Positions 1,377 through 50,266 of a stretch of 50,266 nt of DNA are shown in pieces. A program made the translations under genes and the position numbers. The notes under the pieces are model-generated. The model was given only the letters and a program-made list of their open reading frames with translations, made no database searches and was not told where the DNA came from. The stretch comes from a virus (lineage: Duplodnaviria > Caudoviricetes), in the IMG/VR virus record IMGVR_UViG_3300031626_000004, positions 1-50,266 of that record; one strand, 5' to 3'. Every line of letters begins with the position of its first letter. The first letter of the stretch is position 1.

Positions 1377-1382
1377 GCTGTT

Positions 1383-6281: not shown

Positions 6282-6282
6282 T

Positions 6283-6809: not shown

Positions 6810-6813
6810 AAAC

Positions 6814-7251
6814 ATGGAAGATATGAGAAAAGCATTCGAAACTAACAAGATGCGTGTGATGATTGAGTCAGTGTCCTATACGGGCAGCGCGTTCGGATCG
6901 AATGAGGATGGAGATTCAGTATTCTTCAACCAAAGGTTGGTAGAGAAGGTGGAGCTAGAGATGGGCGACATTGTCGAGGCCCATGCGATCCCGAACTACG
7001 AGGACAAGCGGCACGAGACACCATGGCGGGCGATCAGGGTTGCTGTTGTTGGCAAAGGGGATTTATATGCCACACCTCCGACCGTCCCAGCCGAGGATCA
7101 GATCAAAGAGTACCTGCGAAATGAGGGTTATGCCATGACGGTCTCGGAGCTCGCTGAGATTTTAAGTTTCACCGATGAAGAGATTGAAAAGTGTTTAAGC
7201 GAGGACAAGAACTTCACATTAGTCCCTGCATACATCTGGTCGGGAGTTTAA
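6814..7251 (+). CDS. OB-fold (cold-shock-like) plus winged-HTH protein
   Basis: SAFG...GDSVFF...GDIV...WRAIRV, then MTVSELAEIL. Confidence 0.55.
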   Translation: MEDMRKAFETNKMRVMIESVSYTGSAFGSNEDGDSVFFNQRLVEKVELEMGDIVEAHAIPNYEDKRHETPWRAIRVAVVGKGDLYATPPTVPAEDQIKEYLRNEGYAMTVSELAEILSFTDEEIEKCLSEDKNFTLVPAYIWSGV

Positions 7252-7281
7252 CTTGCGCCCTGCTAATGTATGCTCTATAAG
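7252..7281 (+). promoter_or_regulatory. promoter of the RHH gene, overlapped by an inverted GGCGCA 12-mer
   Basis: CTTGCG-17-CTATAA (alphaproteobacterial-style); 7252-7263 is the reverse complement of GCAGGGCGCAAG. Confidence 0.6.
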
Positions 7282-7304
7282 TGGGCAACAAATAGGAGGG
7301 CATC

Positions 7305-7478
7305 ATGGCTCGGAAAAAGTTAGACGACAAAGACAAGCAGAAGTTTCAGAACGTGGGCCTCATCAAACAGGACCACGAACTGCTGCGCGAGTTAGCTGAA
7401 GGCGAGCAGCGGTCCATGGCCCGCCAGTTATCGGTATTGATTCGCAAAGCTGTTGCAGAAAATCGAGATCAAGTTTAA
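7305..7478 (+). CDS. 57-aa ribbon-helix-helix (Arc/CopG-like) regulator (not in ORF track)
   Basis: MARKKLDDKDKQKFQNVGLIKQDHELLRELAEGEQRSMARQLSVLIRKAV; AGGAGG RBS. Confidence 0.75.
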   Translation: MARKKLDDKDKQKFQNVGLIKQDHELLRELAEGEQRSMARQLSVLIRKAVAENRDQV

Positions 7479-7485
7479 ACTATAG

Positions 7486-7562
7486 GAACTGCTCGGTGTA
7501 GGTCCACGCCTGTGGCCTACCACCTCACTGTCAACTGGCCCCCTCACGGGGGCTATTTTTTT
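7486..7562 (+). ncRNA. candidate ~75-nt small RNA
   Basis: Promoter TTGCAG-17-TAAACT (7453-7481), hairpin 7495-7524, terminator 7536-7562. Confidence 0.35.
7536..7562 (+). terminator. intrinsic terminator
   Basis: TGGCCCCC-TCAC-GGGGGCTA followed by T7, at the junction of convergent genes. Confidence 0.85.
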
Positions 7563-7795
7563 GGCTCGTTCGATCTTCCAATTTTACTCTTGGCAAGCCG
7601 CGCGGGTTCCTTACTATAGCCGCGGATTTGTGTGACGTTATCTCGCTTCATGCTTTTGAGCAGCGATGCCGCTACATCAGGGGTTAGCCCAGCTAGCTCC
7701 CCCAGTTCCTTGGTTGCGTTAGCTAGGTTAGTCCACCCCTTCTTGTAATCACAGATAGACTCGATCATTTCATCGTGGGTTTTAGACTTAGCCAT
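7553..7795 (-). CDS. hypothetical protein
   Basis: 80-aa ORF overlapping the helicase end; GGAGG upstream. Confidence 0.7.
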   Translation of the reverse strand: MAKSKTHDEMIESICDYKKGWTNLANATKELGELAGLTPDVAASLLKSMKRDNVTQIRGYSKEPARLAKSKIGRSNEPKK

Positions 7796-9237
7796 TCTCT
7801 TGCATCCTCTCCTAGAACTTTTGCACCGATGTCGATCTTGGTGCGTAATGCTTTAACGATATGTTCATCGATGCTGCCTTCGCAGATCAGGTCGATGTAT
7901 GTCACGTTGTTTTTCTGTCCGATCCTGTGGGCCCGATCCTCTGATTGGATGCGCGTCTCAAGATTGAAGTCGTTGGCATAGTATACCACGAGGTTAGCCT
8001 CGGTCAAAGTCAGACCGTAGCCCGCGGTGGCGGGATTGCCCACAAAATACTTTAGCGGATGATCAGGGTTCTGGAAGTTGAGCACCGCTGCGGCTCGATC
8101 ATCGTCGGATGTATCTCCGAAGTATGACACAGCGCAGCCCTTGCCGAACTTTTTGTTTAGCATGTCTGTCATGCCGATGATATCGTGGCGGAACCGAGAC
8201 CAGATGATTGCTTTGCCGTCATGCTCGTTGATGATCTCTTCGAGCGCCTCCATTCTTTTGGATGGAAAGTACAGCATGTCGCCGTCATCAGTCTTGAGAT
8301 GCCCGGACATGATCTGCTGGAGCCGAAGCATCTGCGTGATCACAGCGGGAGCCGTGGACATCTCGCCACTATCCAACAGGACCATGGCATGCCTGCGGAT
8401 CTGTTCATACATATCGAACTGTTCTTTGGTCATGCCAACGTAACGTGCGGTGTATATCTTGTCGGGGAGATCGAGGCAGTCCTTCTTGAGCACCCGAAAG
8501 GAAAACATGTCGATCCTTTTGGTTAGCTCGTCGAGGTTCTTGAACCCTACTATCTGTTGGAAGGCGGCTTGGCCCATGGTTTTGCGCTGCACTACAGCAT
8601 AGCGTCCCTGGAAAGCATAGTATGAGTCGTAACCCAAGAGCCCAGGGCGGAGGAACTCGCACTGCGAATAGATATCCATCGGGCTTTTTGTTACGGGGGA
8701 ACCTGTCAACAGTCTTCTGTACTTGAACTGGGCTGCTATTTTCATTAGAGCTTTAGTGCGTTTGGCCTTGTGGTTTTTGATTGTTGTTGATTCGTCTATT
8801 GCTATCATGCCCCCTGCGCCAAGCGCACGAGCCATCCAGTTCCCTGCCTTCTGTCCTTTGAGCGAGGAGAATGATTCTACGTTCATCACGAAGATGGTCA
8901 GCCCCTCGAACTTATCTTGGACCGAGCGCATTTCTTCTTGCTGTTTCTTATTTGGGCCTGACACCCAGCGAATCACCCGGTGCGGTATGTCGTCGGACAT
9001 GTGCTCGGGTATCTCTTTGGCTACCCAGTTGCGATACACGCCCTTGGGTGCGATGACCAAAGCGAAGTTGATCTCTCCTGCTTGGTACAGCATGCCCATG
9101 TTATCGATCAGGACCTTTGATTTCCCTGTGCCCATCTCCATGAAGAGCCCGAACTCAGTGCGGTCCCAACCATAATCTAGTGCATCTGTCTGGTGATCGA
9201 ATGGTTTATATTTATATTTGTAGTTGACATCCATCAT
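7765..9237 (-). CDS. SNF2-like superfamily 2 helicase
   Basis: MEMGTGKS, DES, LTGSP, GYGLTL, QSEDRAHRIGQ. Confidence 0.92.
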   Translation of the reverse strand: MMDVNYKYKYKPFDHQTDALDYGWDRTEFGLFMEMGTGKSKVLIDNMGMLYQAGEINFALVIAPKGVYRNWVAKEIPEHMSDDIPHRVIRWVSGPNKKQQEEMRSVQDKFEGLTIFVMNVESFSSLKGQKAGNWMARALGAGGMIAIDESTTIKNHKAKRTKALMKIAAQFKYRRLLTGSPVTKSPMDIYSQCEFLRPGLLGYDSYYAFQGRYAVVQRKTMGQAAFQQIVGFKNLDELTKRIDMFSFRVLKKDCLDLPDKIYTARYVGMTKEQFDMYEQIRRHAMVLLDSGEMSTAPAVITQMLRLQQIMSGHLKTDDGDMLYFPSKRMEALEEIINEHDGKAIIWSRFRHDIIGMTDMLNKKFGKGCAVSYFGDTSDDDRAAAVLNFQNPDHPLKYFVGNPATAGYGLTLTEANLVVYYANDFNLETRIQSEDRAHRIGQKNNVTYIDLICEGSIDEHIVKALRTKIDIGAKVLGEDAREWLSLKPTMK

Positions 9238-9291
9238 ATACCTCCACTATTGTCTCTAGTACGGATAGCATGAGGCTGCCGCACAAATCAA
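9224..9291. promoter_or_regulatory. overlapping divergent promoters of the replication module
   Basis: + strand TTGACA-18-TATTGT (9224-9253); - strand TTGATT-18-TATCCG (9291-9262). Confidence 0.45.
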
Positions 9292-9310
9292 CCCTGAAGA
9301 GGAAAAACTT

Positions 9311-9871
9311 ATGAACGACATTTTTGAAGACATATTCGATGAGGCTGACGCGGTCAGTCGAGTTGACACAGGAACTGGAAAGCAACTCAGCCAACTGGTC
9401 CGCAATCTCCGCACTGTCGAGAACGATATCGAAGATGCAGAGACACATTTGAAATCACTGAAGCAAGAGAAACACAAGCTGTCTGTCGAGAACATCCCAG
9501 CCTTGATGGATGAGATGGGTGTAGAACGTTTGGATGTAGACGGCATGACCGTGGAGCGGAAGATGATTATCGCCGCGTCCATCCCTGTCGCCAACAAAGA
9601 TCAGGCGTTCGATTGGCTTAGGTCCAATGGTCTAGATGATATTATCAAGAACGATGTCACTGTGTCCTTTGGCAAGGGAGAAGACAACGTGGCGGGAGAT
9701 GTCATCGGCATCTTGCGTGACAAGGGATTCGATCCTAAGACCAAGACTCATGTTCACCCGTCCACGTTGAAGGCGTTTGTTAAAGAGCGCATCACTGACG
9801 GCAAACCAATCGACCTCGATCTGTTCGGGGCATTTATATCAAACACAGCAGTAATTAAGAGGAAAGCATAA
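9311..9871 (+). CDS. replication-associated protein (coiled coil + VHPSTLKAFVKE)
   Basis: GAGGA RBS; AFDWLR...DIIKN...HPSTLKAFVKE pattern typically found upstream of phage SSB genes. Confidence 0.7.
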   Translation: MNDIFEDIFDEADAVSRVDTGTGKQLSQLVRNLRTVENDIEDAETHLKSLKQEKHKLSVENIPALMDEMGVERLDVDGMTVERKMIIAASIPVANKDQAFDWLRSNGLDDIIKNDVTVSFGKGEDNVAGDVIGILRDKGFDPKTKTHVHPSTLKAFVKERITDGKPIDLDLFGAFISNTAVIKRKA

Positions 9872-10665
9872 TGGCTAATCAAGTAGCAACAAAAAAGAAT
9901 GCAGAGTTAAGCACAGACATCATGGATGACATCCTTGAGTTTGCAGGCGAGGGTGCTGCCTTTGGCGCAGATGAAATGCAGATCCCGTTTGTTCGGGCAC
10001 TACAAGCGTTGTCCCCACAGCTTGGCAAGAAGAAGCCTGAGTACATCGAGGGTGCGGAGCAGGGAGATATGTTCAACACTGTGACTGGCGAAGTCTGGAA
10101 GGGCGATGACGGCGTGACTATCATACCGTGCTACCAGACCACCAAGTATCTTGAGTTCACACCTCGTGACCAAGGCGGCGGATTCCGCGGCGAGATCAAC
10201 CCTACTGATCCGATCCTTCAGCGCACCTCGCGCGTTGGGTCCAAGGAAATCCTTCCAACAGGCAACGAGTTGGTCAAGTCAGACCAGCACTACTGCTTGG
10301 TATTGGGTGGAGACGGCGCGTATCAGCCTGCTGTTATCGACATGAAGTCTACGCAGTTAAAGGTCAGCCGTCGTTGGAAGACCCAGATTGCAATGCAGAA
10401 GATCAAGAACCCGAAGACAGGGGCCATGGTTGTACCTCCGCTGTTCGCTACAGTGTGGAAGATCACCACTGTTGAAGAGAGCAATGACCAAGGCACATGG
10501 TTCACGCCTTCTGTCGAGAAGGTCGGTCTTGTAGGTAGCCGCGATCTTATGCTTGAAGCCAAAGCCTTCCGCGACAGTGTCGCTGCGGGCGAAGTGAAAG
10601 CTGCTTCAGAGGAGCGTGTCCCCACTGCCTCTTCTGTACAACAGGATGACGACATCCCGTTTTAA
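9871..10665 (+). CDS. single-stranded DNA-binding protein-like
   Basis: LQALSPQ, acidic C-terminal DDDIPF tail, position in the replication module. Confidence 0.7.
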   Translation: MANQVATKKNAELSTDIMDDILEFAGEGAAFGADEMQIPFVRALQALSPQLGKKKPEYIEGAEQGDMFNTVTGEVWKGDDGVTIIPCYQTTKYLEFTPRDQGGGFRGEINPTDPILQRTSRVGSKEILPTGNELVKSDQHYCLVLGGDGAYQPAVIDMKSTQLKVSRRWKTQIAMQKIKNPKTGAMVVPPLFATVWKITTVEESNDQGTWFTPSVEKVGLVGSRDLMLEAKAFRDSVAAGEVKAASEERVPTASSVQQDDDIPF

Positions 10666-10673
10666 GCAGCCTC

Positions 10674-10705
10674 GGGAGAGGCGCGGGTAACGTCTCTCCC
10701 TTTTT
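10674..10705 (+). terminator. intrinsic terminator between SSB and primase
   Basis: GGGAGAGGCG-7 nt-CGTCTCTCCC followed by T5. Confidence 0.8.
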
Positions 10706-10722
10706 CACAACAGGAGCAGTAC

Positions 10723-12246
10723 ATGACACAAGCAAAGAGATTGCTTGCAGTATTCGTTGGTGCAAAGGCTGCACACGGCACGACCACTGTCGGTCGCATT
10801 GGACGAAACGGCAAGGCAGAATCCAAGAGTATGATCGTTCGCTCTCCTTTAACCGAGGAGCTCGTTCAATCCCACATAGATGGGAAGCAGGGCGTTGGTG
10901 CGATCCCGATTAATGAAGAGAACATGTGCAAGTTTGCGGCGCTGGACATCGATGTCTATGACCTGAACCACAATGAACTCCAAGCTAAAATCCAGAAGCT
11001 GAAACTGCCGTTGATGCACTGCCGATCTAAGTCGGGCGGCGCTCACCTGTATCTGTTTCTAAAAGACTGGGCCCCCGCAGCCAACATCAGGGATTATTTG
11101 ACAGAGATGTCTATTGCTCTGGGCTTTAGCGGCTGCGAGATATTCCCGAAGCAAGACACGATCATCGCGGAGCGTGGAGACGTGGGCAACTTTATCAACA
11201 TGCCCTACTTCAACGCCGAGATGCCCCAGCGTTATTGCTTTAACTCACACACCGAGGCGCTTGAGTTAGACGAGTTCTTAGATGCGGTGGACAAGGCCCG
11301 CGTGTCTGAGTCCGACCTCGAGGGCTTTCGGTTTGCTGGGAAGCGCAAGTACTTCACCGATGGACCGCCCTGCCTTGAGCATCTGTTCGCGGATGGGCCA
11401 ATTGATACGCCACGCAATACATGCATGTACCAGTGCGGCATCTATGCCAAGCTGTCGGACCCCGACAACTGGAAGAGTAAGTTGGAAGAGTTCAACCGGA
11501 CGCTGTGCTCTGAGCCGCTGCCGTCTGTAGAGGTGATCAACCTGGGCAAGTCGCTTGACCGGAAAGACTTTGCGTACAAGTGCAAGGAAGAACCATTCAA
11601 GAGTTACTGCGACCCGACCCTCTGCGCGAGCAGGAAGTTTGGGATCAGCACTGATGCGCCTGACATGCCCTCGGTTGGAGGCTTGACGATCATGTTGTCC
11701 GAGCCGCGCGTGTACTTCATGGATGTCAACGGCGCGAGGATTCAGTTGTCCACTGAGCAGTTGCAGAATCAGATCCTGTGGCAGCGGGCATGCATGGAGC
11801 AGATGAACTTGATGCCTCCTACAGTCAAGCCTCAGAAGTGGCAGCAGATGGTCAACCAGTTGATGCAAGGCGCTACGGTTATCGAAGTGCCGGAGGAAGC
11901 CACGATCAAGGGCCAGTTCAAAGACCACCTCAAGTCCTATTGCACCAGCCACATCAGGGCTATGGCTCCTGAAGAGATGGAGATGAACAAACCGTGGACT
12001 GATGCTGGGGTAACCAAGTTCAAACTGGAAGGTTTGATAGAGTACCTGCACCACCGTAGGTTCAAGGTAGAGAACCGTGGGCAGTTGATCCAACTGATCA
12101 AGGACGTTGGCGGGGACCAAAGCCGAGAAAACATTAAGAAGTCCGACGGAAGAAGAACAACGCTTCGATGCTGGGCAGTCCCATCCTTTGAAGACGATCA
12201 CATTGAATTACCAATAAGGGAGATGAACGATGACATCCCATTCTAA
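10723..12246 (+). CDS. archaeo-eukaryotic primase (AEP) family primase
   Basis: DID motif I, SKSGGAHLY motif II, EIFPKQ, GNFINMPY, PPC, Cys cluster. Confidence 0.85.
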   Translation: MTQAKRLLAVFVGAKAAHGTTTVGRIGRNGKAESKSMIVRSPLTEELVQSHIDGKQGVGAIPINEENMCKFAALDIDVYDLNHNELQAKIQKLKLPLMHCRSKSGGAHLYLFLKDWAPAANIRDYLTEMSIALGFSGCEIFPKQDTIIAERGDVGNFINMPYFNAEMPQRYCFNSHTEALELDEFLDAVDKARVSESDLEGFRFAGKRKYFTDGPPCLEHLFADGPIDTPRNTCMYQCGIYAKLSDPDNWKSKLEEFNRTLCSEPLPSVEVINLGKSLDRKDFAYKCKEEPFKSYCDPTLCASRKFGISTDAPDMPSVGGLTIMLSEPRVYFMDVNGARIQLSTEQLQNQILWQRACMEQMNLMPPTVKPQKWQQMVNQLMQGATVIEVPEEATIKGQFKDHLKSYCTSHIRAMAPEEMEMNKPWTDAGVTKFKLEGLIEYLHHRRFKVENRGQLIQLIKDVGGDQSRENIKKSDGRRTTLRCWAVPSFEDDHIELPIREMNDDIPF

Positions 12247-12445
12247 TAGACTCCTGCGGGTAGGAGAAGTTGCGGACCTGTTGGGGGTATCCAAGTCGTA
12301 CGTCTACAAGTTGGCTCAAACAACCCCCGACTTCCCACTCCCTGTTGTACTGGGCAGCGAACACAGCAAGCGTTCGTCTAGCCGCTGGGTTCTGTCCGAG
12401 ATTGAGGATTGGGTGAGCAGCAGGCCGAGGGGGAAGGAGCTATGA
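12230..12445 (+). CDS. AlpA / excisionase-like DNA-binding protein
   Basis: LLRVGEVADLLGVSKSYVY...FPLPV...SRWVLSEIEDW. Confidence 0.85.
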   Translation: MTSHSNRLLRVGEVADLLGVSKSYVYKLAQTTPDFPLPVVLGSEHSKRSSSRWVLSEIEDWVSSRPRGKEL

Positions 12446-14001
12446 CTGCGCTCTACGATGGCTGGTCAGTGGGGATTGACAACTCACTTCTGATCTTGGG
12501 GCCCCCAGGCTGCGGCAAGACGCACCGTTTGATCCGAGAGATCAAGGCTGCACTTGCCAACGGCACACACCCTTCCCGCATCGGCGTCATTTCGTTTACC
12601 CGCAAGGCTATCGAAGAGATGGTTTCTCGTGCCTGCGCTGAGTTCAACCTGACACCCAAAGACTTTCCGCACATGCGGACGAGTCACTCGTTTGGGTTTA
12701 ACGGTCTGGGTCTGCAAAAGCAGGACGTTTTGAGCACCGAGGACTATGCTGATCTAGGCAGTAAGATAGGTCTGACCTTTGAGGGGGACGACAAAACCAG
12801 CATTGATGACGGTGTATCCATGCCCACCATCGGTGGATCGGGGTCCCAGTACCTCCAGCTAGAGCACCGCGCTCGGTATCGGATGGTTACACTGGAGCAA
12901 GAGTTCAACAAGGAGGGGAACAGGGATTTGTTCTACCCCAAGTTGGTCCAACTCCACGAGCAGATGAACGAGTACAAGTCGGTGATGGGCAAGTATGACT
13001 TCGTTGACATGATCGAGAAGTACATCGACATCGGGGATCCCCCTGGCTTGGACTATCTGTTTATTGACGAGGCTCAAGACTTCACGCCTTTGCAGTGGGA
13101 GATGGCGAAGAAGATTGCTGAACGGGCAGGCAAGGTGATCATTGCGGGCGACGACGATCAAGCCGTACACCGTTGGACCGGGGTTGAGGTTGATTTGTTT
13201 ATCCAATCCTCGAACCAAGTTGAGAGGCTCACTCAGTCCTACCGCATCCCAAGGTCTGTCCACCGTCTGGCTAACACCGTCTCACGGCGCATCACTGGGC
13301 GATTGGAGAAAGAGTTCCAGCCCCGTGAAGAAGAGGGCTTGGTTGATTACGTCTACCATCTGGAAGATATCCCCGTAAACGAGGGGTCATGGACCGTGAT
13401 GGCGCGAACAAACTATCAGGTTCGAGAGCTAGCCAAATGGTTTCGGGCCTCCGGCTTTAAGTTTTCCATGAAGGGCTATGCTAGCATATCAGAGAAGTTG
13501 GTCGGGAACATCCTAGCGTGGGAGGACCTGTGCCAAGACAAGACGATAGGATTGCAGCGGCTGCGCCAGTTGTACACTGGGTTGCCCAAGCAGGGGGAAG
13601 ACGCTGCTCTAAGGCGGGGTGCTACCAAACTGCTGGATGCGATCCATCCGGAGGCCGAGGTTGGAATGCAACAACTCCAATCGGATTACGGATTGCTAAA
13701 AGGGGCGGAGATATCTGCGTATAACGTACTCAGGGTCAGTGTTTCTGAGCGCAACTATATTGATGCGATCCAGCGTAGGGGCGAGGACCTTCTGTCACCG
13801 CCTCGGATCAAACTGTCCACGTTTCATGCGATGAAGGGCGGCGAGGATGACAACTGCATTGTATATACAGCGTCCACTAAGGCTTGCGTTGGGTCCAGAT
13901 ACCAAGAGGATGAGCACCGTGCGTTTTACGTTGGTGTTACCAGAGCCCGACACACGCTCTACATTTTACAAACCGATAACAAATACAGGTACACATTATG
14001 A
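12442..14001 (+). CDS. UvrD/Rep-like superfamily 1 helicase
   Basis: GPPGCGKT, IDEAQD, GDDDQAV, QSYR, STFHAMKGGE, YVGVTRA; AAGGAG RBS. Confidence 0.92.
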   Translation: MTALYDGWSVGIDNSLLILGPPGCGKTHRLIREIKAALANGTHPSRIGVISFTRKAIEEMVSRACAEFNLTPKDFPHMRTSHSFGFNGLGLQKQDVLSTEDYADLGSKIGLTFEGDDKTSIDDGVSMPTIGGSGSQYLQLEHRARYRMVTLEQEFNKEGNRDLFYPKLVQLHEQMNEYKSVMGKYDFVDMIEKYIDIGDPPGLDYLFIDEAQDFTPLQWEMAKKIAERAGKVIIAGDDDQAVHRWTGVEVDLFIQSSNQVERLTQSYRIPRSVHRLANTVSRRITGRLEKEFQPREEEGLVDYVYHLEDIPVNEGSWTVMARTNYQVRELAKWFRASGFKFSMKGYASISEKLVGNILAWEDLCQDKTIGLQRLRQLYTGLPKQGEDAALRRGATKLLDAIHPEAEVGMQQLQSDYGLLKGAEISAYNVLRVSVSERNYIDAIQRRGEDLLSPPRIKLSTFHAMKGGEDDNCIVYTASTKACVGSRYQEDEHRAFYVGVTRARHTLYILQTDNKYRYTL

Positions 14002-14186
14002 AAGCAACTGAAGCCATTGCAAGAACCCTGATATTTGTCACAGAGAACCCTGATATTAAACCAGAGGATGAGCTGAGGGTAATGGCAGAAATGCTGGAGC
14101 CGATGCTAGATGCAATCTTCGGGTCAGATTACGAAAAGGTTGGTAACTTATCCGTCCAAAAGGGAGACTCAGATGAAACTAACTAG
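13998..14186 (+). CDS. hypothetical protein
   Basis: ATGA overlap with the helicase stop. Confidence 0.6.
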   Translation: MKATEAIARTLIFVTENPDIKPEDELRVMAEMLEPMLDAIFGSDYEKVGNLSVQKGDSDETN

Positions 14187-14529
14187 AAAACACGAGATCG
14201 ATGCCGAGGCGGCAGTATTCTCTAATAAACACCCCAAGGTTACCGAACTGTTTGTTCGGTTCACTACAGAGATTATTAACCGAGGGTTCAATCACTACTC
14301 AGTCAGTGCTATTTTTGAGCGAATCCGCTGGGAGACAGACCAAGCAGATGTAGATGGCAAGTCTACGTTCAAGCTAAACAACAACTACCGTGCTTGGTAT
14401 GCTCGTAGATTTATGGAACATAACCCAGAACATGCAGGGTTTTTTAGAACCAGACGCCGTGCAAGTGCGCTGCAAGACGCTTTAGGTTTATACGAGTTCA
14501 CTGCCGAGGATTTTGAAGATGAAACGTGA
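14173..14529 (+). CDS. conserved phage hypothetical protein
   Basis: IFERIRWE...FKLNNNYRAWYAR...FFRTR; GGGAG RBS. Confidence 0.75.
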   Translation: MKLTRKHEIDAEAAVFSNKHPKVTELFVRFTTEIINRGFNHYSVSAIFERIRWETDQADVDGKSTFKLNNNYRAWYARRFMEHNPEHAGFFRTRRRASALQDALGLYEFTAEDFEDET

Positions 14530-14848
14530 TGAAGTCTTAGACACAGCAAAAGAACTGATCAATGGATCGAGGGCCAAGGACTACGGGGATGCGTTCGAGA
14601 ACTTCTCTCGGATTGCAGTAGGCTGGAACGCCATCATCAAAGAGGCGATGATGACTCACGGGCATGTGACCGAGCGGCACATTGCGCTGATGATGGACTG
14701 GTTGAAGACGGCACGGCTGCTCAACGACCTCGACAAGGTAGACTCGTGGATCGACAAGTGTGGCTACAGTGCGTTGGGCTCAGAGTTCACGGATCGTGAG
14801 AACGACATCCAAAAGCGTATAGCTTTGCACCTAAAGAAAGATAATTGA
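14519..14848 (+). CDS. DUF6378 / nucleotide diphosphohydrolase-like protein
   Basis: RAKDYGD...NFSRIA..W...LKTARL...DSWIDKCGY. Confidence 0.75.
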   Translation: MKRDEVLDTAKELINGSRAKDYGDAFENFSRIAVGWNAIIKEAMMTHGHVTERHIALMMDWLKTARLLNDLDKVDSWIDKCGYSALGSEFTDRENDIQKRIALHLKKDN

Positions 14849-16761
14849 TGTCAGAGAACCTATTCGGAAGCGATCTGCACCACCAGTTTAAAGGGGAGAT
14901 GGACATGATAGACTCGGACTGGAACATACCGCCGGAGTACCCAGACCTGACAGGCTATAAAGAAGTTGCTGTTGATCTGGAAACCAAGGACCCGAACATC
15001 AAGACGCTTGGCCCAGGCTGGTCTAGGAAAGACGGGCACATCATCGGGATCGCTGTCGCAGCGGGAGAGTACAAGGGGTACTTCCCTATCCGCCACGAGA
15101 ACGGGCACAACCTTGATCCAAGGATCACGTTGAAGTGGCTGAAGAAGCAGATGGCTGTGCCTGAGATGGATGTAATAATGCATAACGCAACCTACGATGC
15201 GGGTTGGATGCGGGCCGAGGGCGTCGAGATCAAGGGTCGGATGATCGACACCATGATTACAGGCGCTCTGGTTGACGAGAACCGCTGGTCCTTTGGCCTT
15301 GATGCGATGGCTCGGGACTATGCTGGGGTACGCAAAGACGAGAAGATGTTGAAGGCTGCGGCTGCGGCGTGGGGCATCGATCCCAAGGCAGAGATGTGGC
15401 AGTTACCCCCGATGTATGTTGGGGCCTACGCCGAACGCGATGCTGTGGCGACACTGAAACTCTGGCAGGCCCTGAAGATCCAATTGGATGAGCAGAAGCT
15501 GTGGGACATCTGGAACACTGAGACCAAACTAATCCCTTGCTTGCTGGACATGCGGAGCAAAGGGGTGCGCGTTGATCTGGACAAGGCTGATCGCAACAAG
15601 AAGTTAATCCGCAGCAAGTCTAAAGAGATGCGGCGTTTGATCGAGAAGGAAGCTGGGCTTGAGGTAGACATCTGGGCCTCTGCATCCATCGCTAAGATGT
15701 TTGACAAGCTGGGCCTTGAGTACCCAAGGACCGAGAGGGGTGCGCCCTCGTTCAACAAAGCGTATCTAAACAACCACCCGTCTGAGATATGCCAGAAGCT
15801 GGTTAAGCTGCGGGAGTTCGACAAGGCTGACAGCACGTTTATCGACAGCATCCTGCGGCACGAGCACAACGGGCGCATCCACACGGAGCTCCACTCCACT
15901 CGGAGGGACGAGGGCGGCACGGTCACGGGCAGATTCTCCTCCTCGAACCCCAATCTCCAGCAGATTCCGGCGCGGGACAAGGACATCAAGAAACTAATCC
16001 GCGGTCTTTTTATCCCAGAAGAGGGGTACAAGTGGGGATCGTTCGATTATTCTAGCCAAGAACCAAGATTACTCGTACACTTCGCCGCCAGCGTTGGGGA
16101 GATCCAAGGGCAGGATCTGCTCGCGGACATTGTCCACCAGTACAACACCGCTGATGTAGACCTCCACCAGATTGTCGCTGACCTAGCTGGGATCAAGCGC
16201 AAGGAAGCGAAGGCCGTGAACCTCGGGATTATGTACGGGATGGGTGTGGCAAAGCTAGCCGATCAACTGGGCGTCGATCCAGATGAGGCGAAGGGATTGC
16301 TGCAGCAGCACCGCGAGATGGTGCCGTTTGTTAAGGCACTGGCTGAGATGGCTTCTCGTAGGGCCGCAAACTCAGGGCAAATCCGGACGGTGTTAGGTCG
16401 TCTGTGCCGCTTCCACCTTTGGGAGCCCACTACGTTCGGGGCAGGCAAACCTTTGCCCCACGAGGAGGCGTTGAAGGAATACGGGGGAGTCAACGGCATG
16501 GGTATCCGCCGCGCCTTCACATACAAAGCACTCAACCGTTTGATCCAAGGATCGGCGGCGGACCAAACCAAGAAGGCTATGCTCGATTGTTACAGTGAGG
16601 GATATACTCCTATGCTAACGGTACATGACGAGCTATGCTTTAACATAGATAGCCCAGAGCAGACTGCCAGGATCAAGGAGATCATGGAGAACGGAGTCCA
16701 GCTAAAGGTTCCATCTAAAATTGACGTTGATATTCAAGATGATTGGGGAGAAATCGAATGA
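14845..16761 (+). CDS. polA: DNA polymerase family A with 3'-5' exonuclease
   Basis: Exo DLET / HNATYD / YAERD; motif A DYSSQEPR; motif B RKEAKAVNLGIMYG; motif C VHDEL. Confidence 0.95.
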   Translation: MMSENLFGSDLHHQFKGEMDMIDSDWNIPPEYPDLTGYKEVAVDLETKDPNIKTLGPGWSRKDGHIIGIAVAAGEYKGYFPIRHENGHNLDPRITLKWLKKQMAVPEMDVIMHNATYDAGWMRAEGVEIKGRMIDTMITGALVDENRWSFGLDAMARDYAGVRKDEKMLKAAAAAWGIDPKAEMWQLPPMYVGAYAERDAVATLKLWQALKIQLDEQKLWDIWNTETKLIPCLLDMRSKGVRVDLDKADRNKKLIRSKSKEMRRLIEKEAGLEVDIWASASIAKMFDKLGLEYPRTERGAPSFNKAYLNNHPSEICQKLVKLREFDKADSTFIDSILRHEHNGRIHTELHSTRRDEGGTVTGRFSSSNPNLQQIPARDKDIKKLIRGLFIPEEGYKWGSFDYSSQEPRLLVHFAASVGEIQGQDLLADIVHQYNTADVDLHQIVADLAGIKRKEAKAVNLGIMYGMGVAKLADQLGVDPDEAKGLLQQHREMVPFVKALAEMASRRAANSGQIRTVLGRLCRFHLWEPTTFGAGKPLPHEEALKEYGGVNGMGIRRAFTYKALNRLIQGSAADQTKKAMLDCYSEGYTPMLTVHDELCFNIDSPEQTARIKEIMENGVQLKVPSKIDVDIQDDWGEIE

Positions 16762-16967
16762 CACATATAGAAGACCTGCAAGCACTAGGCTTCCGTCAAA
16801 TGCACAAGGTACAGATCGATGCGCTGCTTGACCTGATTGCCGTAACCCTAAACCTAGCAGCCCTGACCAATGATCCAGATGTTATCGACGAGACCGAGGC
16901 CACCTGTGACGAACTGGTTCGTCTGTTTGGCGGCAACGGCGTCGAGTTATCTATCAATGTTCACTGA
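16758..16967 (+). CDS. hypothetical protein
   Basis: ATGA overlap with polA; GGGGAG RBS. Confidence 0.7.
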   Translation: MTHIEDLQALGFRQMHKVQIDALLDLIAVTLNLAALTNDPDVIDETEATCDELVRLFGGNGVELSINVH

Positions 16968-39626: not shown

Positions 39627-40118
39627 CTAGACGTGCTTGATGTCGTCAGGCTCTAAGAGCGTAGCGATAACCTCGTCATCATTAATGATGCGAACCTCTC
39701 CGCCGTCGATCTTAAAACGTGAACCAGAATACCGACCAATACAAACCCATTGGCCCTCTTTGCACCATGGCGCTGCGTCAACACCGAACTTGCCGGGGTC
39801 TTTGTAGGCCAAAGGTCCTAACTTCAAAACGTAAGCCACAACAGTAGCTACAGCTTCTCTAGCTCGGATTTCGTCAGGGATATGTAGACCCCCCTGCGTT
39901 TTAGTCGTACCTTGGTACGGCATAACCAACAGTCGCCAACCCGTAGGTTGAGGCAGTCGATCCATCAGGGATGTATCTAAAAGTGCGGGATCTAATACTC
40001 GATCCGCAGCGTTAACGTACGCGCTATCTACAGGGGACGACTCAGTTGAACTTTCAACTTTTCGGTCCTTGCTAATTTTCTGCGCTACATGATCAGGAAG
40101 AAATAAGGTCTTCGACAT
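39627..40118 (-). CDS. groES: co-chaperonin GroES-like protein
   Basis: PTGWRLLV...TQGGLHIP...V..GRYSG.RFKIDG.E.RIINDDEVIA. Confidence 0.88.
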   Translation of the reverse strand: MSKTLFLPDHVAQKISKDRKVESSTESSPVDSAYVNAADRVLDPALLDTSLMDRLPQPTGWRLLVMPYQGTTKTQGGLHIPDEIRAREAVATVVAYVLKLGPLAYKDPGKFGVDAAPWCKEGQWVCIGRYSGSRFKIDGGEVRIINDDEVIATLLEPDDIKHV

Positions 40119-40305
40119 CTTCAGCGTGGTTCTCCAGCAGGGCTTTAATTTCCTCACGAGCGTAGGTCAGGCCCCGTATCTCACCCACCATGAGCTTATA
40201 ACTCTCCCAGTCTTTGGCAGCGTCATGTGCGAGAGCACTTGCAATATCTTGTTCGCGCTCTCGTAGTAGCTTATACATGTATGTCGCAAAGTCTACAAGG
40301 TCCAT
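40093..40305 (-). CDS. small conserved helical protein upstream of groES
   Basis: DWESYKLMVGEIRGL pattern; TAATG coupling. Confidence 0.75.
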   Translation of the reverse strand: MDLVDFATYMYKLLREREQDIASALAHDAAKDWESYKLMVGEIRGLTYAREEIKALLENHAEDVEDLISS

Positions 40306-43724: not shown

Positions 43725-43921
43725 TAGAACAGTCCGAGAAACCTCTGAGGCCGTGCTATCGGGCTGAACCGCCTATTAACCATACCGCCAGAGGAATACT
43801 TACTTTTCCCAGCTTTGCTTAAAGCAATAGCCACCGCTTGATCTTGCGGTTTTCCAGCAGCCATTTCGGTCTTGATGTTCTGGCTGATTACATCTTTGGC
43901 ACTACCTGTTTTGAGAGGCAT
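43724..43921 (-). CDS. small basic late protein
   Basis: MPLKTG...[22 protein letters not shown]. Confidence 0.75.
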
Positions 43922-46442
43922 TCCGTTGCTCCATCGCTTGGCGCTGTACGTCAATCCGTTCCCGGTTCACATCACTGCGCTCGTCCGCAATCTGCTCCTG
44001 AAGCTCCAGTCTAGCAGAGTCAGTCGTAGCCTGCTGCTGTAGCTTCATCTGGTCAAGCTGTAACTTAGCCTGATCCATCTGAGATTTCTGCTCCGCTTCC
44101 ATCTGCTTGATGGCAAGCTCTTGCATACGAATCGTAACCAAAGGATCCTGCTCTTCTCCGCCTTCACCTTTGTTCGTCAGCATCGGCATAACCTGCTGCA
44201 GAAGCTCAGTCTCAAGCTGCGCAACGCGAGCCTCGATCTGATCAGGTGGCATCTGCCCCTGTTGTTGCCCCTGCATCTGCATCTGCTGTATCTGCTGTTG
44301 GGCAATCTCAGGGCGGATAGCCCCCGTTTGAGCAAGGGCCTGCATCTGAGCCATGCCCTGCTCCATCTGCTGCTGTTGCTGCATCTGCATCTGTTCAATC
44401 TCTTGCTGAACCATGGTCCGAGCCTTCATGTGAACGTGCTGCAGAACGTGGCTGAACAATGCCGCCAACACAGGCGGCGTTTGCTGCAGTATGTTTAACT
44501 CAAGTAACGAAACGTGCGCATTTATGTGCGCATCGTGATCCTGCTGTGGGAACGCCTGCGGTGTCTGACCGCCAAGCATAGCCGCGTTCTCCGACGCCGG
44601 GTCTTGCGGTTGAGGCTGTGGCTCCGGCGGCAAGATCTCGTCAATGTTCTGCACCTCTAATGCCTGATACATCCGACGATACGCTGCATGTAGGTTATGC
44701 ATCTGCGGGTTAGACTGAGCCAACTGCAACTGCGTCTGGGCCAGGGTAACACGCTGCGACATCGAGAAGATGTTCGGGTCAGAGACGGGGAGGACATCTA
44801 CCCGAGCATCAAAGTCTTCGACCTTAACCTGTGCAGGAGCCCCTGCCACCTCATACGGATACATAGGAGGTAGGTTTTCGGCGAAGATACGCGCAAGCAA
44901 ACGAAACTCCGTCTTCTGCGCGTAGTGCATCCGTTTGTGAATCGCAGACATGACCTTCATGCCACGCTCCAACATCGCAACAGTCGTGCCAACAGGAGTC
45001 TCACTGCCCATGTCCGCCATCTGCTGATCAGCCAAAGCAACGAACCTACGTCCGTCGTTCACCAGACCGCCTAGCATTGACGCAAGGGCCGCGGACGGCT
45101 CCTTGTACGGCAAAGGCACAATAGCGTCTCTAATGCTGCCTCCGGGCGCGTCAATGTCTCTCCACTCTCCGGGCTGCAACGGCTCATCGGAGTTGCGTAC
45201 ACGCACTCCACGGGCCTTAAATCCAGCAGGGAGGTTGGCTAGAGTACCAGCGTCGATCAACTGGCGTAGCAAGCTCGTAGCCGCGCGGCCCAATCCACCA
45301 ATCATGTGGATCAAACCAAAGCCGTAAAACCCCAGACCAGGCATAAACTTGTAATGCACAAAGTACTGGCGCTTGCGCTTCAGAATATCTTCCTCGTCGT
45401 AGTTCCGGCGAATAGCCAAAACCTGACCAGACGAATGGTCCAAGGTCACAATGTACGGCAGGTTAATGCCCGTAGGCTCACCCGTTGCCGGATCAATGTC
45501 CTCGAAACCCTCAATGTCCAAAGTGGCGTGGAACTCCAAGATCGTCAGCACATCTTCGCTGTAGTTCTTGGATAAGCCCTCAAGCTCGTTAACCTTCTGG
45601 CGAACGGGGTTCTCTTCAATGTCTTCCGACGCCTTCAGATCAACATCACGGTAAATACCCGCGTACTGCATCTTGGCAACTTCGTTATCGTCCATACGCA
45701 AAACATGCGTAACGCGGCTTGCCGTCTGCAAATCACTGGCAGAATAAGGTACAACCAAGTCCTGCGCAGGAATAAACTTAGATACAGCCCGCTGCTTCGT
45801 AGGATCAAAGTATACTTTCTTGAACGTAGAACCAGACAGCGGTAAATAAAACAACATCTGATCCATGTCCGGATCGTACTCTTCCATCACTTCCGTGATC
45901 TGGTAGTTCATAAAGTCCTTGACACGAGTAGCCTGCTCCTCGCGGGCGAGATCCTTCAAACCAAGAACACTCGTGCGAACAGGGCCTCCAGCAGGAAGCA
46001 ACTCTTTATAGGCCTGGGCCTGAAACTGAGTTACACTCTCCGCAACCAACGGATGCGTAATCCCCGACGCGCCCTCAAACGGTGTAGAACGGTCCTCGGT
46101 CTTAATGCCCAACAGGTCCAGCCCGTTGACGTAAGACGTCTCCCACTCTGACCGTGACTCAAGGTCCTCTTCATACATACTGCGGAGCTCACTAGAAAGC
46201 TCCCCCAGCGTAGAATCCTCCAAGAACTCAGCCAAGTTGGCGTCGAACGGAATTAATTCAGCTTGGTCCATCTCGTCAGCCATGCCTATGGCCTGAACAA
46301 TCGCCCCGCCCTCTCCGTCGTCTATAACTTCTGCTCCACCCTCGAACATCTCAGGTGAAGAAATCTCCATCTCTAGATCCGGAAGGCCTGCGGTGTCGTC
46401 TAGGTTTAACCCCGGTGCGACCATGTTTGGTGGTAGAGCCAT
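43902..46442 (-). CDS. portal protein
   Basis: FDANLAE, PFEGASG..HP...[28 protein letters not shown]; Q-rich C-terminal extension. Confidence 0.9.
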
Positions 46443-46714
46443 TAGAATGTTCCTTTAAACTTGGAGCCCTTTACTTGACCGCCTCGGGAAAAGCCTTGAG
46501 TTTCTTCGATACTTTTAGGACGCGACTTAGGACGCGTTCTTTTCAACTCTTTTTGTTTTTTTTCGCTAGCAATATCGTCTAGGTAATCAGGGTATCCAGT
46601 GTTTGTTGCGGCTTTATCAAACCCTGATGCTTTCAACAAGTATGGAACAAGTGTATGCCCGCCGACCCGCTGAAACGTATTGCGTTTGTCTTTGCTGCTA
46701 CTTTCGTCGGCCAT
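46442..46714 (-). CDS. small basic late protein
   Basis: Coupled between terL and portal; RPKSRP, FSRGGQV, FKGTF. Confidence 0.7.
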   Translation of the reverse strand: MADESSSKDKRNTFQRVGGHTLVPYLLKASGFDKAATNTGYPDYLDDIASEKKQKELKRTRPKSRPKSIEETQGFSRGGQVKGSKFKGTF

Positions 46715-48180
46715 CAGTAATACTCCCTTTTCTTAGGACGCCATTCTAGTTCGTCTTCCTCTTCGCCCTTCAGAGAGATGAACCCTCCCTGTCTAAAGCG
46801 CATGAGTGCTAAAGTCATACTATCACAGAAGTCATCGTTTTCGCCATTAGGAAATGAAACTATTTCTTCTATGACTTCATCAGCAAACTTTTCGTGCATC
46901 GGTGCCCACACCATACCAGCTTCGAACAATGGAGCAACCATATGCATTCTACTGACCTTATCAGTTCCTTTGCCCGGTGAGAAGCCCAGTGCAGGAATGC
47001 CACGAAGCCGCAACTCGTCAATCAGTGGTGTGCCCGTCGCCTTCGCTTCAACCAACACCATGTCCGGCTCCCAATATTCATGCTCCTCATAGGCTACCTC
47101 CTTGAGTTCAGGGAAATTCCAACGACCGCGCCTCGCGTCCAACAACACAATGTGGTCCGGCCCACCATCCTCGGGCTTGAAGATTCCCCAAGTCGTAATC
47201 GCAGAATAGTCGGCACTTTGCTTTTTCGAGAACGCCGTATCGTAAGACTGCAAAACGTAGCTCAAAGGCGGGATCTTCTCCTTGTCCCAGTCCAACCACC
47301 ACTCGCGTTTGATGATCGCAGACTCAGATGACGTCGGGGTCTGCTGCCACTGAGCATTCCACTTGCCAACAGGCAACGAAGCCTTGATCGAAAGCAGAGC
47401 GTCCTTGTCCCAGAATTCAGGCCATAAAGGCCTATCTGAGGGCAAAATAGCAGGGAATTCAACAACTTCCCACTGGTCAGACATTACGTCTTGGCCCTGC
47501 GCCGCCAACAAACGGCCCGTCAAGTCCTTCTTCCCCCAACGGGTCATAACCAAAATGATCGTGCCACCAGGCTGAAGACGCTGACGAGGGCCAGAAGTAT
47601 ACCACTCATAGGCATTGTCGAATGCGCTCTCGCTTAAAGCGTCCTGTTCCGAATGCGGATCATCAATGATAAGTAAATCCGCTCCGCGACCTGTAATCGC
47701 CGCGCCAACGCCAGCAGCAAAGTACTCCGCGCCCGCCGTAGTGCCCCACTTTCCCGCACCCTTGTTATCTTCCTTGAGATTGGTGTTAGGAAAAATCTCT
47801 TTATAAGCCGGATCATCGATCAAATCCCTTACCTTACGGCCAAATCGTACCGCCAACTCCGTGTTGTGCGTGGCCTGAATGATTTTTAACTTAGGGTTTC
47901 TACCCAAAAACCAAGCAGGCATCAAGAAACTCGCAAACTCGGACTTGGAATGTCGAGGTGGCATGTTAATAATCAGCCGCTTGAGCTCCCCTCGTGCAAC
48001 ACGTTCAAGTTTTTCAGCAATAATCCGGTGGTGCTGCCCCTCGATGAAGTTCTCATACACATGATGAGCAAACGGCATGAACTTTTCTGTTGCTTCTTCT
48101 CGCAACTCAAGCCGCCTCTTGGCCTCAGTTAAGGCCAAGATCTCCTTTAAGGCTTCCTCGGGAAGTGCGTGTAGATTCAT
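46714..48180 (-). CDS. terL: terminase large subunit
   Basis: MPPRHSKS (Walker A), IIDDP, MTRW, SYDTA, DDFCDS nuclease motifs. Confidence 0.95.
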   Translation of the reverse strand: MNLHALPEEALKEILALTEAKRRLELREEATEKFMPFAHHVYENFIEGQHHRIIAEKLERVARGELKRLIINMPPRHSKSEFASFLMPAWFLGRNPKLKIIQATHNTELAVRFGRKVRDLIDDPAYKEIFPNTNLKEDNKGAGKWGTTAGAEYFAAGVGAAITGRGADLLIIDDPHSEQDALSESAFDNAYEWYTSGPRQRLQPGGTIILVMTRWGKKDLTGRLLAAQGQDVMSDQWEVVEFPAILPSDRPLWPEFWDKDALLSIKASLPVGKWNAQWQQTPTSSESAIIKREWWLDWDKEKIPPLSYVLQSYDTAFSKKQSADYSAITTWGIFKPEDGGPDHIVLLDARRGRWNFPELKEVAYEEHEYWEPDMVLVEAKATGTPLIDELRLRGIPALGFSPGKGTDKVSRMHMVAPLFEAGMVWAPMHEKFADEVIEEIVSFPNGENDDFCDSMTLALMRFRQGGFISLKGEEEDELEWRPKKREYY

Positions 48181-49553
48181 TAGCTGGTTCTAAACGGTAA
48201 AGACGCTAGTCCTTGTTGTGCAACTGTAATAGGTTGTATGTTAGGTGTTGGTACAACGAAATTAGGCTGCACTGGAGGGGCCAAGGTCGGCAGAGTATAC
48301 GCACCCGCAGCCGTGTAAGACGCTGCGGGCATCGCAGGAGTCTGAACCTGAATTTCTGGACGGTTAAACACGTCGTTCGGGTCTATCACACAAGCGTTCG
48401 TAGCAGGGTCCATCATGTAACCCACAGGACAGGGATCAATAGTCGTCGGGGCCACGCCAGCGACCGCAGGCCCAGGCTGACTGATCCCAGGTCCGTCGTC
48501 CGATTTGTTTGTAGGGAAATTCGGATCGACTTGAGGAGCACCGATCTTAGCCATCGCTGCATCTTGATCAATAGTCGGGTCCATGACCTTGGCGGTGTCA
48601 GACCGTGAGCCCGTGTAAGACAAAGGATTGCCGTCCGCATCCACGGATAAAGAACCAACAACCTGCCCGCCCTCCATCACAGGGACATAACGAGCCGTGG
48701 CAGAGTTAGATATACCAAGCGCCTTGGCAATGCCACTGGGCTCATAACTCCCCGTTAACTGCTCATAAGCTCGGCGCTGGTCCATGTCCGCTAAGTAATC
48801 AATGCCCTGAAGCGCGGGCATGCCTGAAAAAGGACCGAATCGAGGCTCGTCCAACTTGGTCCCAAGACCAAGGACCGCGTCAACATACTCTTGGCCCGTT
48901 AATCCAGCGTCAGCTAACATCTTCTGAGCGTTTGCCCGGCCCTCGCCCGCAATGGTTTGAGTCTTTCCATCGCCGTCAGTGTATGAAAGAGGCTGACCAC
49001 TCGTCAAATTAACGCCGCGCTCGGTGCTCTGACCGTACGGATCAGCCGCCGCCGCTATCCGCTGCTGCATAAACCGATCTTGAAACGCCTGATCAACGTT
49101 GGGGTTAGCAACGTTCGTATCGTAAACCTGACCACCTCGTCTCTCTTTATTGTCAAAAGGAGTGAGCCTGTTGATCATGTCGTCCATGTAACTATTAACA
49201 ATACGAGGGTCCCGAGCCCCCGGCTCCGCAGCCATCGCAGTTACCCTGTTGGGCATAGCGTAAGTTGTTTTGCCATTAGGGTTTGTGCTTTTAACAGCGC
49301 GGGGGTTGTTGTCCTTGTAACTAGCCTGAACCTTCGCAAAGTCGCTCTTCTCTTTGCGTGACACAGGACGGATGTTGCCCTGAGAAGGAGGAGGAAGAAT
49401 GTCCGTGGTCGTCCCAGACATAACATCCTGACCAAAAGTGCTGCCGCCGCCGTCGTCGCTGCCGCCGCCGCCGCCGCCACCTTCTTTGTCCCCGCCATAA
49501 AATATCTGGGGTCGGATCGGGTTCAAACCCATTAAATCAAGCAGCTTTGTCAT
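48180..49553 (-). CDS. Gly-rich-leader late protein, putative acyltransferase substrate
   Basis: Likely start MTKLLDLMGLNPIRPQIFYGGDKEGGGGGGG; CPVGY...C module; TAATG coupling to terL. Confidence 0.65.
   Translation of the reverse strand: MTKLLDLMGLNPIRPQIFYGGDKEGGGGGGGSDDGGGSTFGQDVMSGTTTDILPPPSQGNIRPVSRKEKSDFAKVQASYKDNNPRAVKSTNPNGKTTYAMPNRVTAMAAEPGARDPRIVNSYMDDMINRLTPFDNKERRGGQVYDTNVANPNVDQAFQDRFMQQRIAAAADPYGQSTERGVNLTSGQPLSYTDGDGKTQTIAGEGRANAQKMLADAGLTGQEYVDAVLGLGTKLDEPRFGPFSGMPALQGIDYLADMDQRRAYEQLTGSYEPSGIAKALGISNSATARYVPVMEGGQVVGSLSVDADGNPLSYTGSRSDTAKVMDPTIDQDAAMAKIGAPQVDPNFPTNKSDDGPGISQPGPAVAGVAPTTIDPCPVGYMMDPATNACVIDPNDVFNRPEIQVQTPAMPAASYTAAGAYTLPTLAPPVQPNFVVPTPNIQPITVAQQGLASLPFRTS
49441..49480. 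repeat. (GCC)n-rich tract encoding poly-Gly
   Basis: GCC triplet run on the + strand. Confidence 0.8.
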
Positions 49554-49944
49554 GCCAAGCACCTTTGTTTGGGAACGTCCCGTTCCTGTTTCCGCGATGA
49601 GCAAGCACCTCAGTCACCCCTGGGTACTGAATCCAAAACTGCTTTCTCATTTCTTTACAAATCCACAATACATCTTTTTTACCATGCGTGGCAATCATAT
49701 CTACAAAAACCATTACATCGCCCTCGTCACGGGCAAAAATCTCCGGGCCGCAATAATCCTTGCTGGCAAACTCCTCACGAGTCATAAACGCCCAGGTGAT
49801 CAATCCAACGCACACCCCATCCCTGTAAAACAACCGTATCTGATCATTGTCAATTGCAGGCAATAACCGCCAAGAAATCGTAGAGGACGGGAAGTCCCTA
49901 TAAGACTCAGACGTGCACCAAAGATTTAACGCATCACGAATCAT
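49537..49944 (-). CDS. HlyC/RtxC-family (toxin-activating) acyltransferase homolog
   Basis: LWCTSESYRDFP...LLPAIDNDQ...RDGVCVGLITWA...GD...FVDMIATHG...MRKQF parallels the HlyC family as recalled: LWASSPLHRNWP...VLPAI..NQ...RD..PVAYCSWA...GD...FIDWIAPFG...MRKKF. Confidence 0.8.
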   Translation of the reverse strand: MIRDALNLWCTSESYRDFPSSTISWRLLPAIDNDQIRLFYRDGVCVGLITWAFMTREEFASKDYCGPEIFARDEGDVMVFVDMIATHGKKDVLWICKEMRKQFWIQYPGVTEVLAHRGNRNGTFPNKGAWHDKAA

Positions 49945-50266
49945 CCGCCCCTCAAACTCGCTAAACCCTGAAACCGATCCAAAGCATTCCCGCCACTGCC
50001 GCGGCTCACAGACGCACTCGCCTTCAAAGGACTAACCTTCCGGGGACTAAAAGCCTTGGTCAACATGGACAAACCAGCCATCGCAGACTGATAGTCATCA
50101 GCCTCCGATCCACCGTCCGACTCCGCTAACGTCTTCAAGGCAGCCTCAATACCGCCAACCGTGTCAGGCCGAGACGAAGTACGAACAGGCGCAAACTCCT
50201 CCGCGTAATCACTCAAACTCGTGCCGTTAGAATCCGAAGGGTTGTACTCGCCTCCCGACTCAAGGA
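49941..50266 (-). CDS. 5'-truncated late protein (possible lysozyme-like domain)
   Basis: Frame stays open to the window end: ...LESGGEYNPSDSNGTSLSDYAEEF...; ATGA overlap with the acyltransferase. Confidence 0.6.
   Translation of the reverse strand, partial: LESGGEYNPSDSNGTSLSDYAEEFAPVRTSSRPDTVGGIEAALKTLAESDGGSEADDYQSAMAGLSMLTKAFSPRKVSPLKASASVSRGSGGNALDRFQGLASLRGG

Follow-up and report, generated by a model that had tools for sequence, protein, structure and literature searches.

We describe a two-gene module in the virus record IMGVR_UViG_3300031626_000004 of IMG/VR, a linear record of 50,266 bp (CheckV completeness 94%) that is referred to here, at its full length, as the window. The first gene encodes a 135-residue protein of the toxin-activating acyltransferase (TAAT) fold family, which includes HlyC; the second, directly downstream, encodes a 457-residue partner that opens with a short leader and a glycine-rich linker. 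The leader-bearing partner accompanies the enzyme across related viral contigs, and where the enzyme is replaced by an unrelated GNAT the leader is replaced with it. We propose, with a probability of roughly 45%, that the two proteins form an enzyme-substrate pair in which an active TAAT-fold protein N-acyltransferase acylates the N-terminal region of its dedicated downstream partner. The comparisons show family, fold, conserved residues, gene pairing and the cassette swap; catalytic activity, acyl donor, acceptor residue and biological role are inferred for the pair.

Fold and active site of the phage enzyme

The initial annotation had recognized the 135-residue protein as HlyC/RtxC-like by eye, and profile, sequence and structure searches bear this out. 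Against the Pfam family HlyC (PF02794), whose cut-off is 25, the protein scores 48.5 bits (E 9.9e-13; 47.9 bits in a search of the whole record), with residues 6-106 aligned to positions 6-105 of the 127 in the profile. In a phmmer search of the PDB the best match was ApxC (4whn, E 4.7e-7), the only solved TAAT; the alignment is gapless across query residues 6-52, as had been claimed for the N-terminal block, and a profile of the phage family gave E 4.5e-8 against ApxC. A model predicted from 32 homologues (pLDDT 89.5) was searched against the PDB with Foldseek, in which the 4whn chains took ranks 1-3 (E 7e-8 to 9e-7, TMq 0.69-0.75). The next match was the GNAT-like domain of CurA at E 1e-3, and the weak fold matches, at TMq <0.5, include tRNA-acetylating toxins. 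The top match in BFVD is a protein of an uncultured phage that already bears the name HlyC. A best structural match outside the HlyC/TAAT fold had been named beforehand as a result that would refute the assignment; the match obtained, ApxC, has that fold. The 135-residue protein therefore belongs to the TAAT fold family, without the canonical His.

Alignments with ApxC place Tyr15 of the phage protein in the column of the catalytic His (His24 in ApxC, His23 in HlyC), a substitution that the initial annotation did not notice. The column of the catalytic Asp, which we take to be Asp93 in ApxC, is occupied by D82. Across the 74 viral homologues, the count for both Y15 and R26 is 73 of 73, and for R72, D82, H116, R117 and G118 it is 74 of 74. 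The wider family was sampled by taking the 150 best representatives in a library that comprises 1.84 billion proteins. In the 31 closest of these, the His column holds Y in 25, F in 3 and a gap in 3; in the other 119 it holds H in 73, Y in 30, a gap in 13 and other residues in 3, and the Asp column is D in 102 of the 119. Tyr at the His column is usually accompanied by the Asp (23 Y-D versus 67 H-D). With Y in 30 of the 119 more distant representatives, Tyr is thus a recurrent natural state of this column. In classical GNATs, a Tyr is the usual proton donor to the thiolate. These residue patterns suggest a working enzyme with an Asp/Tyr pair. In the model H116 and R117 stand at the end of the strand adjoining the D82 strand, and our guess is that they may take part in catalysis.

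The His24 numbering follows PMC8510554, with chain numbering taken as native plus 11. Passages of that paper, on the TAAT CdiC, describe a His-Asp dyad and a direct attack in which the Asp deprotonates the Lys and the His protonates the thiolate of the acyl carrier protein (ACP); they also report that partial activity remains in ApxC H24A and CdiC H37A. Within the library sample, a subgroup (P0089-P0098, P0104 and similar proteins) keeps the Tyr, carries Q, S, T or K in place of the catalytic Asp, and has a His three residues earlier; possibly this branch has been rewired or has lost its activity. Proteins of the library can hold one or more HlyC-like domains: P0079 (393 residues) has one at its C-terminus, and P0105 (334 residues) and P0182 (412 residues) hold two each.

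The leader-bearing partner and the joint exchange of leader and enzyme

Gene neighbourhoods were surveyed twice. The first survey comprised 39 IMG/VR loci, one of which holds only the last 18 enzyme codons and four of which end just past the enzyme; a large open reading frame (ORF) starts at the enzyme stop in all 34 assessable loci, and it carries the leader in 30. The second, made with a profile, took the best 80 of 97 relatives; five end too early, and in all 75 assessable loci a leader-bearing ORF starts between -73 and +6 nucleotides (nt) from the enzyme stop, with GTG as the start codon in L122 and L130. The surveys have 32 contigs in common. Their union is 86 viral contigs, 81 of them assessable, and in 77 of these 81 a leader-bearing partner lies directly after the enzyme. 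The window and L050 also carry such a partner. A scan of genome contigs yielded one relative among 27 pattern matches, on a 5.7-kb contig of a metagenome-assembled genome labelled Marinomonas that is too short for the host to be named, and there the rule is kept. The two-gene module is found upstream of terL, after the portal gene, or between the two, and its upstream neighbour varies; enzyme and partner move as a unit. In L130 a single HlyC-like gene is followed by two tandem ORFs with leader and poly-Gly (2881-3282, 133 residues, GTG start; 3279-4940, 553 residues). Wherever it lies, the HlyC-like gene is part of a late, translationally coupled chain.

With a length of about 13-22 residues, the leader has hydrophobic-x-[FYW]-G-[GE] as its C-terminal end, and a Gly run and a Ser/Asp-rich stretch come next. 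M1, G20 and G21 are invariant in the leader alignment, and several synonymous codons are in use for the conserved residues. In many loci the first 5-6 leader codons overlap the 3' end of the enzyme gene; in the window (49537-49553) they are a second-frame reading of the enzyme tail ...WHDKAA. Family members that end in ...FPNKGG have no overlap, and their partners start 1-6 nt past the stop. The possibility that a frameshift joins enzyme and partner was considered and rejected: only in some loci does the partner's reading frame stay open on the upstream side of its ATG, and the similarity in that upstream frame arises secondarily from conservation of the enzyme C-terminus, read in the other frame.

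What argues most strongly for recognition of the leader by the enzyme is that the type of leader tracks the enzyme. Homologues of the window partner body (66-68% identical) often have another leader, which starts MRSLY...FGG. In four of four sister contigs (L041, L046, L047 and L044) the slot between the SLT lytic-transglycosylase gene and the partner gene holds a GNAT of 161-163 residues, of which L044 shows the last 13 codons only, and the leader is of the other type in all four. The GNAT profile PF00583 matches 14 of 14 members of the replacement family at E<0.01 (best 1.6e-5); the L041 protein alone scores 19.9 bits, just below the Pfam cut-off of 20.7. Top PDB matches of the replacement protein are GNATs (E 0.011), its family profile reaches E 0.0013 against 1vkc, and its acyl-CoA-binding motif region aligns to solved GNATs.

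Between the window and L041, the TerL proteins are 89% identical, the whole partners 66% and the SLT proteins 60% overall with near-identical C-terminal halves, and the enzymes are unrelated. Partner residues 1-20 agree at 2 of 20 positions, residues 21-40 at 14 of 20, and the swap boundary falls exactly at the leader. The change in the partner being confined to its first 20 residues, enzyme and leader have been exchanged as one cassette. The window-type body is also found with three TAAT-type leader variants. Thus the same body bears various leaders, which change with the enzyme, and it is the enzyme rather than the body that the leader follows.

Beyond the linker, the partners have mosaic bodies, and their lengths run from 133 to 1,253 residues. 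No Pfam, PHROG or NCBIfam family matched the window partner, and in a Pfam scan of 18 partners 17 were without a family and one had a LysM domain. The latter, in L025 (4123-6489), has its LysM directly after the Gly linker (PF01476, E 5.6e-12), and the partners of L086 and L087 have a similar start, YTIQSGDTLSE. A search of the ESM Atlas with residues 120-345 of the partner yielded a single viral cluster, unnamed, at 0.76, which falls short of the threshold for a lead. A transmembrane anchor was sought and not supported, the 19-residue hydropathy maximum being below 1.6 in 24 of 25 partners. The partner was also considered as a small terminase; it matches no such family, and the identity was rejected because the module also lies after the portal gene or between terL and portal, and because of the wide range of partner lengths. 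At the other end of the protein, the pattern GL[AG][ST][LIM] occurs in only two window ORFs of at least 60 residues, those of the SLT protein and the partner, each time 3-5 residues from the C-terminus. The SLT protein (...FQGLASLRGG, 49941-49975) and the partner (...QQGLASLPFRTS) have in common a C-terminal G-[LIV]-x-S-L motif, and related C-termini are seen in upstream proteins and partners of other loci (L001, L014, L029, L030 and L033-L036). This motif may be a common targeting or cleavage signal.

Gene chain and neighbours

At its right end the window carries a minus-strand late chain in the order SLT, 135-residue ORF, 457-residue ORF, terL, a 90-residue ORF and portal (Table 1), with head, tail-fibre and ejection-type genes downstream. 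The chaining by overlaps that the initial annotation described was found at each junction: ATGA where the SLT TGA meets the HlyC-like ATG, 17 nt between the HlyC-like gene and the partner gene (ATG at 49553), and TAATG where the partner TAA meets the terL ATG. The partner is Gly-rich as stated there, with 10.9% Gly and a G7 run. In its complete form, in L001, the SLT protein has 211 residues and matches PF01464 (SLT) at E 3.4e-27.

Table 1. Features at the right end of the 50,266-bp window
Feature	Position	Strand	Basis or remark
SLT lytic-transglycosylase gene, 3' part (C-terminal 107 codons)	49941..50266	(-)	Open 5' end, cut by contig end; C-end ...FQGLASLRGG
HlyC/TAAT-fold acyltransferase-like gene, 135 residues	49537..49944	(-)	Pfam, ApxC alignment, model, Foldseek
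Partner gene, 457 residues: leader, Gly linker and largely disordered body	48180..49553	(-)	ORF, homologues
Partner leader, codons 1-21, MTKLLDLMGLNPIRPQIFYGG	49491..49553	(-)	Proposed recognition element for the acyltransferase
Partner poly-Gly/Ser/Asp linker, codons 22-38	49440..49490	(-)	Gly run after aromatic-G-G in each leader-bearing partner
Partner C-terminal motif QGLASLPFRTS	48183..48215	(-)	Common to SLT protein C-end
Large terminase terL, next in chain	46714..48180	(-)	phrog_38 E 1.9e-105; Pfam Terminase_6C, Terminase_6N
Portal protein	43902..46442	(-)	phrog_1216 E 2e-48

Across the 50,266-bp record there are no matches to PF00353 (HemolysinCabind) or PF02382 (RTX), which agrees with the earlier remark that the window holds no RTX toxin, and none to PF00550 (PP-binding/ACP), so that no phage ACP gene was found. 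No type I secretion gene appeared when 32 late-gene products were compared with PHROGs, the early region (1-16,800) lying outside this family-by-family scan. In DNA comparisons the nearest cultured relatives, with 64-80% identity confined to small parts, are the pelagiphages HTVC023P and HTVC027P, neither of which has the HlyC-like gene, together with several Roseobacter phages. A GroES-like co-chaperonin gene lies at 39627-40157 (phrog_3188, E 1e-12), as reported for HTVC023P-type pelagiphages. The contig breaks, at 50266, inside the SLT gene, and in L002 and L004 the genes of the window start (1-462) lie about 2.7 kb upstream of SLT; the record is therefore a permuted genome without roughly 2.5-3 kb. 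The missing part includes a Gly/Pro-rich ORF just upstream of SLT, visible in L001 at 1-576.

Proposed acylation, its alternatives and significance

In the mechanism that we propose, the leader of about 20 residues, with its hydrophobic-x-aromatic-Gly-Gly end, would dock on the enzyme, and an amine in or beside the leader and linker would be acylated. The acceptor could be whichever nearby Lys side chain the linker presents, modified by proximity, or the N-terminal alpha-amine. By analogy with the TAAT family, the donor would be host acyl-ACP. D82 would act as the base and Y15 as the acid that replaces the usual His, possibly aided by the invariant H116 and R117. The product, with its acylated N-terminus joined to a variable body by a flexible Gly tether, would have a lipoprotein-like layout and might act in head assembly or ride in the virion. 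Since 24 of 25 partners have no transmembrane helix, the added acyl group would be the sole membrane anchor, and membrane targeting would depend on it. A periplasm-facing or ejected role has only indirect pointers, namely the one LysM partner, the SLT neighbour and the shared C-terminal G-[LIV]-x-S-L motif.

The pair can be set beside several known systems. In hlyC-hlyA the enzyme gene directly precedes the substrate gene, the same order as in the phage pair. With HlyC, ApxC and CyaC (PF02794) the phage protein shares sequence family, fold, catalytic Asp, small size (about 135-170 residues) and a position immediately upstream of a gene for a large Gly-rich protein; it differs in the invariant Tyr for His and is about 35 residues shorter than ApxC. 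Unlike RTX systems, the phage partner lacks RTX repeats and a conserved acceptor Lys, and the gene sits in a packaging and head operon with no type I secretion system among the late products scanned. N-myristoyltransferase and RimI/RimJ/RimL, members of the GNAT superfamily, recognize a short N-terminal sequence and use the alpha-amine as acceptor; the phage system resembles them in its GNAT-type fold and in the classical GNAT that replaces the TAAT in sister phages. N-myristoyltransferase requires an N-terminal Gly, whereas most phage leaders begin M-K, M-R or M-T, and the likeness would be one of fold and substrate recognition rather than of demonstrated sequence membership. Leaders of ribosomally synthesized and post-translationally modified peptides (RiPPs) and double-glycine leaders are short, end in Gly-Gly and guide modification, and the phage leader likewise is a short N-terminal element ending in Gly-Gly that co-varies with a modifying enzyme. 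However, its "core" would be a protein of 133 to 1,253 residues, its hydrophobic spacing departs from the classical double-glycine consensus, and no C39 peptidase was seen. In class IV contact-dependent inhibition, according to the passages of PMC8510554 that treat it, a TAAT, CdiC, has been co-opted to lipidate an adjacently encoded non-RTX protein, CdiA, so that the family is not limited to RTX toxins. CdiC, however, retains the His-Asp dyad, and what it modifies is a single conserved Lys (K1467) in a folded receptor-binding domain, whereas the conserved element in the phages is an N-terminal leader with a Gly linker.

Several observations weigh against an enzyme-substrate pair. The canonical catalytic His is absent, and no invariant Lys column exists in the partner leader or body: a Lys lies in the leader of 45 of 55 distinct versions and in residues 2-60 of 53 of 55, with none there in 2 of 55. 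The partner has no recognizable domain and a poor, largely disordered predicted model (pLDDT 46.7). In the four exceptions to the rule, L033-L036, whose enzyme is 42% identical, the downstream ORF (721-1,036 residues) has no leader and starts MGAGNQGG. Conservation of the first 5-6 leader codons is ambiguous because of possible dual coding with the enzyme 3' end. Finally, linked genes can co-vary by descent alone, and only four GNAT contigs were found. Of the initial proposal that the phage acylates its own late protein, the dedicated late target has thus been strengthened by the leader-bearing partner and the GNAT-for-TAAT swap, and the chemistry has been made less certain by the change of the catalytic His to Tyr and by the lack of a positionally conserved partner Lys.

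Some of the same evidence can be read otherwise. The leader might be a docking peptide that tethers the enzyme to the partner as putative cargo for the capsid or assembly site, the real target being a host molecule or another phage molecule, for example after ejection. Enzyme-leader covariation and a flexible Gly tether suit binding as well as catalysis on the leader, the leader has no conserved acceptor residue, and the module lies among packaging and head genes; the two leader-bearing ORFs per enzyme in L130, however, suit several substrates better than several carriers, and we regard mere tethering as rather unlikely. We consider it quite unlikely that the enzyme gene is an auxiliary or "virulence" gene, next to the partner gene through operon packing only, whose product has a target unrelated to the partner, be it a host protein, tRNA or a small molecule. 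The published view of viral hlyC as a toxin-related virulence gene falls under this reading. Targets of the GNAT fold are very diverse, the weak matches to tRNA-acetylating toxins fit such a role, and a virome paper ranks hlyC among the most abundant marine viral "virulence genes". Yet the partner stays with the enzyme despite relocation of the module, the swap boundary coincides with the leader, the record has no match to RTX repeats or domains, and the gene is always in a late coupled chain.

A non-catalytic role is also conceivable, but improbable: as a pseudoenzyme of the TAAT fold, the protein would bind the leader without acyl transfer and serve as a chaperone or assembly factor. Loss of the catalytic His would fit, and a largely disordered partner might need a chaperone. 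This is difficult to reconcile with the near-complete invariance of the Asp column, Y15, R26, R72 and H116-R117 (73-74 of 74 sequences), with the recurrence of Tyr, usually with Asp, in the wider family, and with a replacement gene that is itself a GNAT with an alignable acyl-CoA-binding motif region.

The occurrence of the gene in marine phages is already annotated in print in two papers. One is the virome paper, and the other a pelagiphage preprint (bioRxiv), in which "HlyC, toxin-activating lysine-acyltransferase" appears in a figure legend only; the group containing relatives of the window phage is reported as very abundant in the ocean. No functional study of phage protein acylation by a TAAT was found in the literature searched, supplements lying outside the search. 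By tblastn, neither the window enzyme, nor two divergent family members, nor the partner matched anything in 50,697 records of cultured phages, and none of these records could be linked to the pelagiphage labelled "HlyC" in the preprint legend. What is novel is the rule of the leader-bearing partner and the TAAT/GNAT swap, which appear not to be in print.

TAATs are known for RTX toxins and for one class of CdiA effector, and a phage TAAT with a dedicated substrate, if true, would bring this type of acylation into virus morphogenesis or entry. The "virulence gene" reading of viral hlyC in virome surveys would then need correction. Substrate recognition by TAATs is called poorly understood in the pertinent passage of PMC8510554, and TAAT and GNAT cassettes on otherwise homologous partners provide a clean, directly testable system for it. 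A broader reading, which we offer as a speculation with the odds against it, is that a family of abundant marine phages uses an enzyme of its own, TAAT or interchangeably GNAT, and host acyl donors to fatty-acylate the N-terminus of a Gly-tethered protein, and that the lipidated protein is packaged and, once released at infection, engages the membrane of the host. If true, no earlier case would be known of a phage that encodes a system to lipidate one of its morphogenetic or ejection proteins, and the arrangement would parallel, in a virus of bacteria, the myristoylated peptides with which non-enveloped animal viruses enter cells.

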